A DNA stretch of 16,926 nucleotides from Candidatus Sigynarchaeum calidifontis (GTDB taxonomy: Archaea; Asgardarchaeota; Lokiarchaeia; Sigyniarchaeales; Sigyniarchaeaceae), in the NCBI GenBank assembly GCA_030587475.2, contig JAUQYZ020000063.1:1-16926 (forward strand), given 5' to 3'. The notes beneath the pieces are model-generated. The model was given only the letters and a program-made list of their open reading frames with translations, was not told the origin of the DNA and searched no databases. Positions within the stretch are counted from its first letter, which is position 1, and the number at the start of each line of letters is the position of its first letter. The translations under genes and the position numbers were made by a program. Shown piece by piece: positions 1-16,577 of the stretch.

Positions 1-1230
1 CGAACCATTGCCCTCGAGGAACTCGCGCGGCGGCTCGGCATCACGGAGAAGACGGTCGAGGAGAGCCTCGCGTCGCTCATCGCCCGCGGCGACAACGCGG
101 GCTACATCGATTTGCGGACGCGAGAATTCAAGCTCGACACGGTACGGCCATCGATCTCGGCCGCATCGCAAAAAGGGCAGGGCAAGCAAAGCGGTACCCA
201 GCCCGGGGTGCCGTTTGTTTCGAACCACGATGAAAAGTACGTGGAAGTTGTCCGGGAATACGATTTCGTCGGCGGGCAGGTGCACTTCAAGGTGGCCGTG
301 CGGAACAACTCGGCAGCTGCAATCTACGACGTCAAGGTCGTTCTCGACTATCCAGATGCGTTCCAGATCGACGACGAGATGATCTCTATCCCCGTGATCG
401 AGCCGAACAGCAGCCGTGGCGTCGATTTCTATCTCGAACCCACGAGCTGCGGGAAATCACAGGTCGGGGCTACGGTCATCTACAAGGACTACACGGCCAC
501 GCCGCACACCGTGCACGTGGAAAAGAAGGAGGTCTGGATCAAGTGCCCGCTTGTCGTTGCCACCATGGACAATCTCAACGACGTGATGCTGGTCATCCAG
601 AGCCTCCCGAGCGATGCGCGGACTTTCTTGATATCGGACATCGATGCACGGCTCGCCTACCACGCTGGTTTCAGGGCGATATCGCACTTCGACGCTCGAT
701 GCGTGGCAGCTCCCGAGAAGATGGAAGGTGACATGTTCGAAGCGGAAGCATATTTCGCTTCGAAAGTGAAGGTCGGCGGAGGGCGCATCGTGATCAAGCT
801 GACCGTGTCGGAGAAGAGCCAGATCATGGAGATACGGGTCTGGTGCGCCGAGGCAGGCCAGCTTACCGGGTTACTCGCCAAGATCATCGAATACTTGTTC
901 CAGGAGATCAACATCATCCGCAAGATCAAGGCCGATTCCCGCGAGAAGACCATCGATTTAATGGCTATTGCTCAAGGCATCACGGTTCTCTCGGATTACG
1001 TGATGTTACAGTGGAAGGCCGGGGACGTGTGCAACAAGCTGGAGGATCTCTTTGCGCGCTTGACACGCGTGCTAAAGACGGATGAGCTGCTCGACGAGAT
1101 GAAGGCATGGCTTGGCAAGTTGCGGGAGCAAGACGAGGACGCGAACCTGTCAAAGGAATTATCCGAGCAGCTCGCGCCCGTCGTTGAAAAATGGCAAGAG
1201 GCCATCAACCGGAAGGTCGTCCCGGAATAG
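1..1230 (+). CDS. 5'-truncated protein: PCI-like winged-helix segment, then Ig-like beta-sandwich plus platform (coatomer/adaptin appendage-like), then a C-terminal helical domain
   Basis: The frame of ORF 112..1230 is open back to base 1 (RTIALEELARRLGITEKTVEESLASLIARGDNAGYIDLRTREFKL), so TTG at 112 is not the real start. This segment fits the C-terminal winged-helix pattern of PCI domains. Residues encoded at ~232-888 show the beta-sandwich pattern (VHFKVAVRNNS..IYDVKVVL..IEPNSSRGVDFYLEP..VGATVIYKD) followed by an alpha/beta platform-like region. The CDS is confident; the domain calls are by eye. Confidence 0.7.
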   Translation, partial: RTIALEELARRLGITEKTVEESLASLIARGDNAGYIDLRTREFKLDTVRPSISAASQKGQGKQSGTQPGVPFVSNHDEKYVEVVREYDFVGGQVHFKVAVRNNSAAAIYDVKVVLDYPDAFQIDDEMISIPVIEPNSSRGVDFYLEPTSCGKSQVGATVIYKDYTATPHTVHVEKKEVWIKCPLVVATMDNLNDVMLVIQSLPSDARTFLISDIDARLAYHAGFRAISHFDARCVAAPEKMEGDMFEAEAYFASKVKVGGGRIVIKLTVSEKSQIMEIRVWCAEAGQLTGLLAKIIEYLFQEINIIRKIKADSREKTIDLMAIAQGITVLSDYVMLQWKAGDVCNKLEDLFARLTRVLKTDELLDEMKAWLGKLREQDEDANLSKELSEQLAPVVEKWQEAINRKVVPE

Positions 1231-3823: not shown

Positions 3824-5047
3824 TCATGGCAAGAATTCCCGCAACTTGGCGAGGAACAAACCGACATCCTCCACGATGCCGATGGCTTGCGCGGATCCCC
3901 TGTCGATGAGCTTCGTCACGACGGCCGGGTTTATGTCCACGCACACGGTCTTGACCGACGATGGCAGGAGATTCCCGGCGGCGATGGCGTGTAGCGTCGA
4001 TGCCAGCAAGAGAACCATCTCCGCGGGCCTGAGGAGCTCGGCCATCTGGTCTTGCGCCTGGAGGACATCGGTCACGACTTCCGGGAGGGGTCCATCATCG
4101 CGGATCGAGCCCGCGAGCACGAACGGCACGCCGTGCTCGATGCACGCGTGCATGATGCCCTTCGTCAAGATGCCCGAGGTGATGGCTCCCCGGATCGATC
4201 CCGCTCCACGAATCGCGTTGATCGCTCGAAGGTGGTTGCGATGACCGCCTTCCATGGATTCTCCGGTCTCGATGGAAATGCCCAAGGACGTTCCAAACAA
4301 GGCATGCTCGATATCATGCACCGCGAGTGCATTCCCGGCGAGGAGTGCATTCACGTATCCTTTCTTGATGAGAGTCACGAGATGATCGACGCCACCTGTG
4401 TGTACGATCGCGGGGCCAGCAACGACCGCGATCTTCCCTTTCAATCGGGCGATCTCCTCGGCGATCTTCTTGATGGTCGTTTCGGACGGCTTCTCCGACG
4501 AGATCTTCGATACCATGAAGTCGAAGACCTTCGACCGCTCTCGCGGCCGTTGTGGGGGCAGCACCCGCACGCCACCGCTTCTCACGACGATCAGGTCCCC
4601 GTTTCGAACGTCCTTGATCTTTTTCGTCCGCGCTTTCCCTTGCATGGTGTTCTCGACGACGATTACGCAGTCCATGCGGGGATCCTTGACCTCCACCCAT
4701 TTCCCGCCCAGGCGTATGAGCGTGGGATGGTTCGTCGTGGAATAGAAGTTTTTCGGCAATATCGTGTCGCCCGGGGCAGGCTCGAGCGCCACGTCTCTCT
4801 CTTCCTCGTGCATGACACCGAGTTTCTTGACAGCTTCGAGGACTTGCTCCAAAGCCGGCTTTGAACCAGCCTTGATCAGGATGCGGGCTCGGCTCTGATC
4901 CTTGTTCGTCTTTCCGATCACGAAATCGAGGATTTCAAAATCCCCGCCAAGCTCGACTATCTTGTCGAGGATCTTCGCCAAGACGAGTGAATCGATAAGA
5001 TGGCCTTCCAGGTGCACTTCTTCGCTGCATTCTTGCACGGGCCTCAC
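3824..5047 (-). CDS. TIGR00300 family protein (LOR/SDH-related; ornithine cyclodeaminase-like, homologous to the C-terminal part of ArgZ/AgrE)
   Basis: Family motifs LEGHLIDS, FYSTTNHPT, GPAIVHTG, GNALAVHDIE, GHRNHLRAIN, LAGSIRDDGPLP, LHAIAAGN and CVDINPAVVTKLIDRGS. GTG start, with a TATATA element about 40 bp upstream (5084-5090). Confidence 0.92.
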   Translation of the reverse strand: MRPVQECSEEVHLEGHLIDSLVLAKILDKIVELGGDFEILDFVIGKTNKDQSRARILIKAGSKPALEQVLEAVKKLGVMHEEERDVALEPAPGDTILPKNFYSTTNHPTLIRLGGKWVEVKDPRMDCVIVVENTMQGKARTKKIKDVRNGDLIVVRSGGVRVLPPQRPRERSKVFDFMVSKISSEKPSETTIKKIAEEIARLKGKIAVVAGPAIVHTGGVDHLVTLIKKGYVNALLAGNALAVHDIEHALFGTSLGISIETGESMEGGHRNHLRAINAIRGAGSIRGAITSGILTKGIMHACIEHGVPFVLAGSIRDDGPLPEVVTDVLQAQDQMAELLRPAEMVLLLASTLHAIAAGNLLPSSVKTVCVDINPAVVTKLIDRGSAQAIGIVEDVGLFLAKLREFLP

Positions 5048-11157: not shown

Positions 11158-13512
11158 TCATTTCTTGGCCCGCGCGGTGCCGAGCCGCTCGACCATGGTC
11201 GGGTCGATGATCTCGCGGGGTTTCCAGTTCTTCGCCTTGAGGATCTCCATGATCTCCGACTTCAAGGTCACGGGAATGTCGGCCTCGACCCGGATGTACG
11301 ATGCCAGGTCGGGGGGCAGGCCGCCGATGTATTTCTTGTGGAGGTCGATCCAGTTCGTGAGCTTGATGCTGCGGCCCTTGATCGAGTCGGCGGGGCGTAG
11401 CGCGAGCTTGGCGATGGCCACGATGGCCTCTTCCTTGGATTCGGCTGCGTAGATGAGGTGCTCGGGGCACGGATCTGCCACGTGCTCGGTGCCATCGCGG
11501 GCGTTCCACACCTTCCAGCGGGCTGGCTCCTCGGGACGGCCGAGGTATGCCCGCCGGTACTCCGCACCATGCGGGCCGATGACGACCGGGATGCCCATGG
11601 CGTTTACACCCGTCGCGATCGACGCCGCTTTCTGGCTCATGGCACCCCACGAAAGGCCAACTGCGCCGACCCGGTGCAGGTTGTAGTCCGCGATCTCCTC
11701 GAAATTGCCGCGGAGCGGGCGCCGGGCGAAAATGTTTGCCACCTTGGCGGCGGTTCCCGTGATATGGCAATTGGCCACGCAAGAGCCGACATTCACGAGG
11801 CAGCCGCGCTCGACCACGCCCGTGTACTTCTCGTAGAGGGTTTGCTTCGTCTCCGGGTCGCGGTACAAGCCGATGTCCATGGCTTCGCAGCCACTCGTGA
11901 GCACGATGTAGCCGCGCTTGCAGAACTCGTCGGCGATCTCGGCAACCTCGTTGATCTTCGACGGGTAATTGGCGCAGCCGACGATTGCAACCACGCCCGG
12001 TATTTCGCCGAGCACGACCGGCGCGCCGATGTTGCGGATTTCGACATCGGTGACGGGGCCGCGGCCAGCGCGTACCTTGAACTTCTCCGCCTTGAGCAAG
12101 TCGATCGCCGAGGACTGGATCAAGTTGAGCGGGCTGATACCTTGCGGGCATTCGAGCTCGCAACGGCCACAGCCGAGGCACTCGGACTCGAGCGCCTTGA
12201 GCTTCGAGAAGTCCCTGTCGATGGCAGCTTGCACGGCCTCGGCCAGGGGCAGGTCGTTCGGGCACGCGCGGTTGCAATTCTCGCATGCCGTGCAGTTGCT
12301 CGCCTCCTCGACCATCTCGTCGGCCTTGGGGTAGATGCTGACGCCCTTCCGCTTGTCATGGAGGGCCAGCGCCACCTTGACCGCGACGCGGCCCGCCTTT
12401 TCGGGGCGGAGGATGAGCACGCCGTCGACCTTGTGATCGACGAGATCGCTCACGATCTTGTCTTCATCGTCCCCGGTCCGATCGGGCAGGCCCATCATGT
12501 TCTTCTCGTTCGTGGCGATGAATGCCGCCTTGATCTTCTTGGCTTCCTCGATGTTATCCGTGCGCACGCACTGCTCGTCGACCATCACGACGTCGGGCAC
12601 GCCGGAGCGGATAAACCGCAACTGGCGTGACATCGAGCCGACGATCTTGGCCTGGTCCCAGTATCGCGTGAGGTCGTGTGCCGTGCAGCAAATGGCCGCG
12701 ACATCGACCTTGTCGTTGAGGTTCTGTTCCTTGATATAGTCGACCATCTCGATGCCGGGGGCCGCGTTGTGCCCGATCATGAGGATGCTCGGCTTCGACG
12801 CGTCCATGCAGCCCATGCCGACGTCGACGAGGGGCGTCTCTTGCCCTTGTTTCTTGAATAGCATGATCTGGGCGAGGTCGGATGCCTCGAGGCCGATCAT
12901 GTCCATGACGCCCGCGTGCATGGCCTTGGCCTCGTAATCGATGAAGCTGCCCTCCTGTCCGGTGTGGCCAGCGCTGAGGAGGTGGACGATCTGGGATTCG
13001 ATGAACTTGAAGACCTTCTCGAGGTCACCGAGCGTGTTGATCTTGATGCCGCAAATGAGGCGGGAGATGGGTGCCTCGACCGCGATGTCGTCACCAAGGT
13101 TGATCGGGTAATCGGGGCCGTATTTTTCGATCATCCAATGGAGCAAGTGGATGCCGTGGGAGCTGTGGCAAGCAGCACCGATGCAGCACGCGATCTCGAC
13201 GATGCGCGCTTGCTGGGTCTTTATGTCGATGCCGCACGCGCCGCGACGGCCCTTGGCGAGGTTGCATTTGCCATAGGTGCACAGGCAACACATGTCGCAA
13301 ATGGGCGCATATGCCGGGGGATACCGGTTCAAGAGGTTCAAGTACCAGTTTCGTAATTCGGTCAAATTCGGCATCGGGGTCGGGCCTTGCGGTTCGAACG
13401 CCGCCTCTTCCTCGAAGGCGATGTCGCCGATTTTCAAGTCCAGACCGGTGATGTTCCCGAACGCCGTGTCCATTTTATCGATTTTAATCCTTGCCGCGTT
13501 TCGTTGAACCAT
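11158..13512 (-). CDS. cdhA: Archaeal CO dehydrogenase/acetyl-CoA synthase (ACDS) complex subunit alpha
   Basis: GPTPMP, CDMCCLCTYGKC..RGACG (B/D clusters). C-cluster ligand motifs GHN, ICCTAHD, DEQC, VGCANY, SGC and GSCV. The extra ferredoxin clusters CTACENCNRACP and CLGCGRCELECP are specific to the archaeal alpha subunit. WGAMSQKAASIATG is also present. Start is ATG 13512 or ATG 13560. Confidence 0.96.
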   Translation of the reverse strand: MVQRNAARIKIDKMDTAFGNITGLDLKIGDIAFEEEAAFEPQGPTPMPNLTELRNWYLNLLNRYPPAYAPICDMCCLCTYGKCNLAKGRRGACGIDIKTQQARIVEIACCIGAACHSSHGIHLLHWMIEKYGPDYPINLGDDIAVEAPISRLICGIKINTLGDLEKVFKFIESQIVHLLSAGHTGQEGSFIDYEAKAMHAGVMDMIGLEASDLAQIMLFKKQGQETPLVDVGMGCMDASKPSILMIGHNAAPGIEMVDYIKEQNLNDKVDVAAICCTAHDLTRYWDQAKIVGSMSRQLRFIRSGVPDVVMVDEQCVRTDNIEEAKKIKAAFIATNEKNMMGLPDRTGDDEDKIVSDLVDHKVDGVLILRPEKAGRVAVKVALALHDKRKGVSIYPKADEMVEEASNCTACENCNRACPNDLPLAEAVQAAIDRDFSKLKALESECLGCGRCELECPQGISPLNLIQSSAIDLLKAEKFKVRAGRGPVTDVEIRNIGAPVVLGEIPGVVAIVGCANYPSKINEVAEIADEFCKRGYIVLTSGCEAMDIGLYRDPETKQTLYEKYTGVVERGCLVNVGSCVANCHITGTAAKVANIFARRPLRGNFEEIADYNLHRVGAVGLSWGAMSQKAASIATGVNAMGIPVVIGPHGAEYRRAYLGRPEEPARWKVWNARDGTEHVADPCPEHLIYAAESKEEAIVAIAKLALRPADSIKGRSIKLTNWIDLHKKYIGGLPPDLASYIRVEADIPVTLKSEIMEILKAKNWKPREIIDPTMVERLGTARAKK

Positions 13513-13590
13513 GGTAATTTCACGGTATAGGTTGATAGAGATAGGTATCTCTTTGTGCATTTATGCTGTTCGAATTACCAAATAGTTGCG

Positions 13591-16163: not shown

Positions 16164-16577
16164 TTATTTATCGCCCGTCACCTTTTTCAAGAATGACTCG
16201 ATGATTTCGATCCAATCAACGAGAACCCTCTTCAATTCCCCGAGGGAATCGAGTACAATTGCATCGTCGACGCCGTTATATCGATGCACGAGGATGTTCC
16301 GCATGCCATTTGCAAGCTTGAGCCGTTCCCCTTGTTCCTTGCTCATCTTGAACATCTCGATAGCTTTATCGATGTTATAAGCGTCTTCCATGATTTCAAT
16401 ACCTATATCCTTCAATGCCATCGCGATCATATCGATGATTCCCTCGATACTGGTCTGAACAGTATAGAAGAGCCCACGTTTCTCGAGCTCGTTTTTCGGA
16501 ACGGTATCGAAGTAATGCAAGTTTTCGGTGATGTAGTTGATCTTGTCCCGATACCGTTTCTCTCTGAGCTGATCCAT
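16164..16577 (-). CDS. hepT: HEPN-domain (DUF86/HepT-like) RNase toxin
   Basis: GMRNILVHRYNGVD is the Rx4HxY motif. 137 aa. An AT-rich TATA-like element lies about 30 bp upstream (16607-16616). Confidence 0.92.
   Translation of the reverse strand: MDQLREKRYRDKINYITENLHYFDTVPKNELEKRGLFYTVQTSIEGIIDMIAMALKDIGIEIMEDAYNIDKAIEMFKMSKEQGERLKLANGMRNILVHRYNGVDDAIVLDSLGELKRVLVDWIEIIESFLKKVTGDK

Follow-up and report, generated by a model that had tools for sequence, protein, structure and literature searches.

The first 1,230 nucleotides of contig JAUQYZ020000063.1 of Candidatus Sigynarchaeum calidifontis, an Asgard archaeon of the class Lokiarchaeia, hold the C-terminal part of a gene whose product is predicted to carry an ear, or appendage, of the kind found in adaptins and in coat protein complex I (COPI), followed by a helical bundle like the C-terminal domain of Vps28 in ESCRT-I (endosomal sorting complex required for transport I). 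The stretch analysed, hereafter the window, comprises the 16,926 nucleotides at the start of this contig (C40), in a draft genome of 5.0 Mb and 269 contigs that is 89% complete. The best overall explanation, to which we assign a probability of roughly two thirds, is that the region forms the ear of a soluble multidomain scaffold of about 799 residues, found in Lokiarchaeia-type Asgard archaea and acting as an ESCRT-linked adaptor. From the N-terminus, the domains are three to four zinc ribbons, a winged-helix array of the UFL1/DDRGK1/PCI type, a linker, an immunoglobulin (Ig)-like sandwich, a platform like that of the TATA-binding protein (TBP), and the Vps28-C bundle. We regard these domain identities, and membership of the Asgard family cog.003822, as virtually assured. 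The architecture was already published under that asCOG identifier (2021, 2024), and the window protein is assigned to it by architecture and homologues rather than by direct alignment to a listed sequence.

Fold of the ear and of the helical tail

Nucleotides 232–888 of the plus strand give a stop-free translation, corresponding to residues 78–296 of a 409-residue frame (P0002), with exactly the residues quoted in a first-pass annotation of the window, which had proposed here a beta-COP/adaptin-like appendage formed by a beta-sandwich and, directly after it, an alpha/beta region. We modelled residues 78–409 with AlphaFold2 (AF2) from a 60-sequence alignment and obtained a mean predicted local distance difference test (pLDDT) score of 94.1. 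In the model the two parts do follow one another directly: an Ig-like, GAE/adaptin-C2-like sandwich of seven strands occupies model residues 4–103 (nucleotides 241–540), and the TBP-like platform occupies residues 106–232 (about nucleotides 547–924), being composed of a beta-alpha-beta-alpha-beta5 domain (106–205) and a long closing helix, which starts at residue 208 and runs on into a four-helix bundle extending to residue 329.

When the PDB was searched with Foldseek, the top match was the beta-COP appendage of the COPI leaf (9qpq_H, E 2.4e-10), accompanied by the ears of beta2-adaptin (1e42_A, E 8.4e-10), gamma-COP (1pzd, E 1.4e-8) and alpha-adaptin (1w80_A, E 1.9e-8). Each ear match covers 236–247 columns, i.e. 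both subdomains, and ranks 1–14 are all occupied by ear families save for rank 12, which is taken by the BBSome subunit BBS9 (6vbu_9, E 2.6e-7). Alignments of both subdomains with VIA-align extend over 199–217 residues (beta-COP ear, Z 13.3 over 217 residues; alpha ear, Z 12.9; beta2 ear, Z 12.4–12.8), while for the platform taken separately the AP-4 beta ear (2mj7) gives Z 13.2 and a root-mean-square deviation (rmsd) of 2.8 Å over 118 of 141 residues, and the sandwich matches the GAE domain of GGA2 (Z 10.4) and the gamma2-adaptin ear (Z 9.8). The nearest neighbours by protein language model, which serve as a lead only, are clusters of adaptin, AP-3 and COPI ears (scores 0.79–0.84). Judged from the model, the region is a true adaptin/COPI-type ear of sandwich and platform, the likeness lying at the level of fold; the appendage proposed by the first-pass annotation is borne out to this extent, in that a platform stands beside the Ig domain and coat and BBSome appendages are both among the structural matches.

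In a set of 60 diverse sequences of the module, two cysteines of P0002 show conservation above 90%: Cys150 (nucleotides 448–450), in a sandwich loop within the motif P-x-x-C-G-K-S, and Cys182 (nucleotides 544–546), in the sandwich–platform linker within K-C-P. Other conserved residues are R85, G91–G92, K97 and N102, together with a T-G-x-L-A motif where the last helix of the platform begins. These cysteines and residues could mark a structural clamp or a metal site at the domain interface.

The helical tail of about 110 residues that had been drawn after the ear likewise exists (residues 296–409), but its assignment to the BBSome type did not survive comparison. The bundle (nucleotides 925–1221) superposes on the Vps28 C-terminal domain with Z 14.0 and an rmsd of 2.7 Å in one structure (2j9w_A; 97 of 101 residues aligned, 18% identity), and with Z 12.6 and 2.0 Å in another (2j9u_A; 92 of 94). 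The four best matches of a tail profile among PDB sequences are all Vps28 C-terminal domains, and the Pfam family PF03997 matches the tails of 11 of 20 orthologues (best E 8.5e-9), one of which reaches 36.7 bits (cut-off 24.5); the match in orthologues is confined to profile positions of about 87–187, corresponding to the C-terminal domain. By model and by profile, the tail is best described as a Vps28 C-terminal four-helix bundle. In eukaryotes this domain is the face of ESCRT-I that contacts ESCRT-II. The N-terminal core of Vps28, which assembles with Vps23 and Vps37, is absent from the window protein, the N-terminus of which consists of zinc ribbons and winged helices; hence, it is not a Vps28 orthologue. 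A scan of the whole genome with PF03997 gave no match at E ≤ 1e-3, and control genomes were silent too, so that the scan is uninformative regarding a canonical Vps28.

It is very unlikely that sandwich, platform and tail together constitute a BBSome-type module like the C-termini of BBS2, BBS7 and BBS9. BBS9 aligns over 241 residues and into the helical part (VIA-align Z 12.6; model 3–310), BBS2 and BBS7 match too, and GAE_BBS1 is the best Pfam match of the window protein, albeit below threshold (17.7 bits against a cut-off of 27; E 0.003–0.005). Yet the BBS9 superposition, which extends into the first helix of the tail, has an rmsd of 20 Å, the Vps28 domain fits the tail better, by sequence also, and neither a beta-propeller nor a coiled coil is found upstream of the ear. 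With its tail so assigned, the ear module appears here to be tied to ESCRT rather than to a coat; of the vesicle-coat-related module suggested by the first-pass annotation, the ear fold stands on structural grounds and the coat connection gives way.

Several observations weigh against taking the protein for an ear-bearing, ESCRT-linked adaptor. Its own tail matches PF03997 with an E-value of just 0.07; no ESCRT genes lie nearby, the neighbours of the gene differing in all three genomes compared; and both ESCRT-II docking and the role of the ear as a hub are, for the family as a whole, predictions. The coat families that the first-pass annotation had looked to profile searches to recover did not emerge above threshold: no adaptin or COPI appendage family in Pfam (Alpha_adaptinC2, B2-adapt-app_C, Coatomer_b_Cpla, COP-gamma_platf) reaches its gathering score, and a profile of the module run against PDB sequences found no adaptin, matching only the Ig domain of a GH20 glycosidase (E 3.7e-4). 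Among 60 relatives, GAE_BBS1 is found in 8 and Alpha_adaptinC2 in 5 (best E 2.6e-4) at E ≤ 0.01. Taken by itself, the sandwich has a generic Ig fold and matches a GH20 accessory domain best (Z 13.6), and the two-domain superpositions have an rmsd of about 8–10 Å, so that the inter-domain (hinge) angle differs from that of solved ears.

Some of these points favour a different explanation, namely that sandwich and alpha/beta region are a mere structural analogue, a generic Ig domain beside a helix-grip or TBP-like domain, sharing neither descent nor functional likeness with coat ears: significant sequence similarity to coat families is lacking, the Ig part matches many unrelated proteins (Z 12–13.6), and the inter-domain geometry is not that of the known ears (rmsd about 9 Å). 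We consider this quite improbable, given that the order of the two matching subdomains is the same and their lengths are similar, that ear families fill the Foldseek top 14 apart from BBS9, and that the platform matches the AP-4 beta ear by itself. Furthermore, published HHpred comparisons relate archaeal appendage proteins to beta-COP and beta2 ears with 98% probability, albeit for Methanosalsum proteins and not for the window protein.

The split gene and its N-terminal half

The 409-residue frame (nucleotides 1–1230, plus strand) extends, open at its 5' end, from base 1 of the contig to a stop codon at 1228–1230. Since the window begins at the start of contig C40, the gene has been cut by the assembly and its 5' end is lost from this contig. 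Nucleotides 1–135 encode the C-terminal part of the last PCI-type winged helix of a UFL1/DDRGK1-like array (Pfam PCI, E 0.005, residues 2–37), and nucleotides 136–240 a hinge-like linker, recognised by its Ser/Gly/Gln/Pro-rich composition, which has no domain match and lies outside the conserved module (homologue matches start at about residue 80). On sequence evidence the frame is a real gene, because it has homologues to E 2e-191 and an exhaustive search returned 621 cluster representatives at E ≤ 1e-3. A search of sequencing runs gave as its sole match a small share of DNA in a hot-spring metagenome study, with no RNA run listed.

The N-terminal part of the protein, about 390 residues, is encoded on contig C101 (L003:3-1418, minus strand) by a terminal open reading frame with a Met start. 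This frame is collinear with residues 1–430 of an 806-residue homologue (P0077; 61% identity), and the window part matches residues 477–805 of the same homologue with 74% identity. Nucleotides 1–98 of C40 are 97% identical, with three mismatches, to the last in-frame 98 nucleotides of the C101 frame (L003 145–250); beyond this overlap the end of C101 diverges, its last ~145 nucleotides being unrelated. Such a break inside the gene suggests strain heterogeneity, in the form of a variant, or a chimeric contig end. When the two parts are joined the gene specifies about 799 residues, in agreement with the lengths of orthologues elsewhere (784–806).

The half on C101 begins with Cys-rich, DZR-like zinc ribbons, followed by tandem winged helices, the repeat of which matches PCI (E 4.9e-16), E3_UFM1_ligase (2.4e-9) and DDRGK (8e-8) in Pfam. 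Full-length orthologues exceed the cut-offs for all three families (PF09743, PF09756, PF01399), scoring 51.8–54.4 bits for E3_UFM1_ligase and 39.5–45.2 bits for DDRGK. No HEAT or alpha-solenoid trunk lies upstream of the ear, where zinc ribbons and the winged-helix array are found instead.

These matches speak for the main rival explanation, by which the protein is an E3 or scaffold of the UFL1/DDRGK1 type for a ubiquitin-like modifier, operating on ribosomes or membrane proteins, with ear and Vps28-C bundle serving accessory recruitment and with modification primary rather than ESCRT delivery. The asCOG name of the family also stresses the UFL1 domain, and the genome contains a UFC1-like match over the cut-off (28.3 bits). 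We think this explanation unlikely: the single UFC1 match is partial, covering positions 14–95 of 155, no match to Ufm1 was found in the 89%-complete genome, and the matches of the N-terminal half span only the generic winged-helix repeats of UFL1 and DDRGK1, with no catalytic or UFC1-binding element. A further possibility arises from automatic annotations of the homologues, which would make the protein a DNA-binding transcriptional regulator of the DtxR, ArsR or Lrp family; JGI names of homologues and weak matches of the winged helices to helix-turn-helix families agree with it. It is nevertheless improbable in the extreme, since the winged helices score best as protein–protein modules of the PCI/UFL1/DDRGK type, known regulators do not resemble a protein of ~800 residues in which ear and Vps28-C bundle are combined, and no conserved neighbouring target gene is present in the genomes compared.

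Distribution, neighbourhood and paralogues

Those homologues with names are 'PCI domain-containing proteins' of Promethearchaeota/Lokiarchaeia, and they include NEF87_003698 of Candidatus Lokiarchaeum ossiferum. Most of the 621 cluster representatives share only the first ~230 query residues, that is the sandwich and alpha/beta region, within proteins of 300–2300 residues, and this combination is therefore a mobile module. A profile of the module detected it in 106 of 201 genomes searched in the phylum, one other family often having several or tandem copies. The full-length orthologue, in unbroken frames of 786–824 residues, is carried by almost every genome of the organism's own order (39 of 40 in family f2 and all three in family f3); at ~790–800 residues it is near-universal and roughly single-copy in the order.

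Within the window, the ear gene and a gene for an M28 peptidase are convergent, and upstream of the ear gene on C101 are an MNT/HepT toxin–antitoxin pair and RmuC. HepT-like (HEPN) toxin genes thus stand in two places, just upstream of the N-terminal half with an MNT nucleotidyltransferase partner (L016:2455-3247, plus strand) and at the far end of the window (16164–16577, minus strand). Two further genes on the minus strand of the window are ordinary metabolic genes without relation to the ear protein, one encoding an 800-residue protein of the Prismane/CO-dehydrogenase family with an inserted 4Fe-4S dicluster domain (11158–13560) and the other an ArgZ-like/LOR-SDH protein (3824–5047). Elsewhere, the genome encodes an ESCRT-II Vps22-like protein (EAP30, 39 bits) and Vps25 (41 bits) on contig C70, as well as four Snf7 genes.

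The same genome contains paralogues of the window protein. One of 626 residues on contig C89 (L002:628-2508, plus strand) is shorter; it has zinc ribbons in double form, a single winged helix of the PCI type and a long linker, and ends in the same module of ear and Vps28-C bundle, being 39% identical to the window protein over residues 81–405. Two other proteins bear the module as well: one on contig C133 (L006:898-2313, plus strand) starts with a helical or winged-helix-like part and continues with an ear and a zinc ribbon at the C-terminus, and one on C140 (L007:403-1770, plus strand), with TPR/SNAP-like helices and TRAP-beta-like Ig domains, matches in the sandwich only.

A further paralogue on contig C198 (L008:712-2142, plus strand; P0248, 475 residues) opens with an alpha-solenoid of about 10 helices, which has a weak match to HEAT_ECM29, and continues through an Ig sandwich and a platform to a zinc ribbon at the C-terminus; its AF2 model has a pLDDT of 84.5. 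Foldseek places P0248 closest to a chain of the COPI coat triad, 5a1u_E (E 3.5e-11 over 563 columns). The ears of beta2, alpha and gamma-COP rank next, and the large chains 5nzr_B/G/K of a COPI coat-leaf entry also align, over 500–626 columns, the alignment of the solenoid being loose (rmsd >25 Å). On its predicted structure P0248 looks like a miniature adaptin large subunit. Named homologues are from Lokiarchaeota or Sigynarchaeota, and the gene converges on that of a 346-residue Ras/Rab-like GTPase with an N-terminal extension of ~180 residues (L008:2155-3192, minus strand). Eme et al. (2023) described AP/COPI domains in Asgard archaea and reported the AP domains as 'not fused to each other'.

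Proposed role and comparison with known systems

As a mechanism for the ESCRT-linked adaptor we tentatively favour docking on ESCRT-II, with rather less than even confidence, reasoning after Makarova et al. (2024) and from eukaryotic precedent. Through its Vps28-C bundle the protein would dock on ESCRT-II, for which the genome encodes Vps22 and Vps25, the ear would serve on its hinge as a hub for partner proteins, probably via short linear motifs, and the winged-helix array and zinc ribbons would bind cargo or a ubiquitin-like tag, making the protein an alternative ESCRT-0/ESCRT-I-like adaptor that feeds substrates to membrane remodelling by ESCRT-III/Vps4. Lokiarchaeal Vps28 and/or Vps23 are known to interact with Vps22 in yeast two-hybrid assays. 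A complex prediction for the genome's Vps22-like protein with the Vps28-C-like tail scored 0.00 against a mark of 0.32, a result which counts neither for nor against binding.

A bolder scheme, which we judge improbable as a whole, would make the ear an ancestral coat appendage that served ESCRT-dependent sorting at a time when there were no coats. In such a scheme the protein would replace ESCRT-0/I and couple tagged or ribosome-associated cargo, held by its winged-helix and zinc-ribbon part, to ESCRT-II, and the solenoid-ear paralogue P0248, encoded beside a Rab-like GTPase, would be a possible proto-adaptin large subunit. For the window protein the idea is already in print; the solenoid-ear paralogue would be new.

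The family unites in one Asgard polypeptide pieces of three eukaryotic systems, namely the ear of vesicle coats, the link between ESCRT-I and ESCRT-II and the scaffold of the UFM1 ligase, and is for that reason relevant to the assembly of eukaryotic trafficking machinery out of archaeal modules. Publications of 2021 and 2024 have already made this point; what the window adds is a further orthologue, independent structural confirmation, and the near-universal and roughly single-copy status of the protein in its order.

Adaptin and COPI ears are hubs for short linear motifs, with pockets for FxDxF, DPF/W and WxxF that recruit accessory proteins. Like the ears of AP-2 alpha/beta2, AP-4 beta and COPI beta-/gamma-COP, that of the window protein has a sandwich followed directly by a platform, spans ~230 residues and is preceded by a flexible linker; unlike them, it has no HEAT/alpha-solenoid trunk, no sequence likeness above Pfam cut-offs and a different inter-domain angle, and it is fused C-terminally to a Vps28-C bundle. 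With Vps28 of ESCRT-I it shares the ~95-residue four-helix bundle of the C-terminal domain, as both structure and orthologue profile scores indicate, whereas the N-terminal core is absent and just the domain facing ESCRT-II appears to have been borrowed. Compared with the UFL1/DDRGK1 scaffold and PCI domains, the tandem winged-helix repeats are alike and above family cut-offs, and the differences are the zinc ribbons before them, the ear and Vps28-C bundle after them, and the lack of a detected Ufm1 in the genome. BBS2, BBS7 and BBS9 have the same order of GAE domain and platform, and their match extends into the following helix, but the window family is without a beta-propeller, its tail is of the Vps28-C kind, and the superposition is poor.

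The closest known system is the published family itself. Liu et al. (bioRxiv 10.1101/2020.10.19.343400; Nature 2021) described 'a fusion of Vps28/Vps23 ... with C-terminal domains of ... adaptin and COPI ... and E3 UFM1-protein ligase 1'. Makarova et al. 2024 (mBio, PMC10936438), who also proposed docking on ESCRT-II, list cog.003822 in Table S2, the Asgard fusion UFL1 - Zn - Adaptin-C - Vps28-C, which is not explicitly listed in their supplementary HHpred table. Zinc-binding domains, UFL1-like winged helices, an adaptin C-terminal region and Vps28-C occur together in the protein described here, so that all four domain types are present; their order agrees with that of the family, as does the lineage (Lokiarchaeia), where NEF87_003698 is an orthologue. 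There is no architectural difference, the present copy being merely split over two draft contigs.

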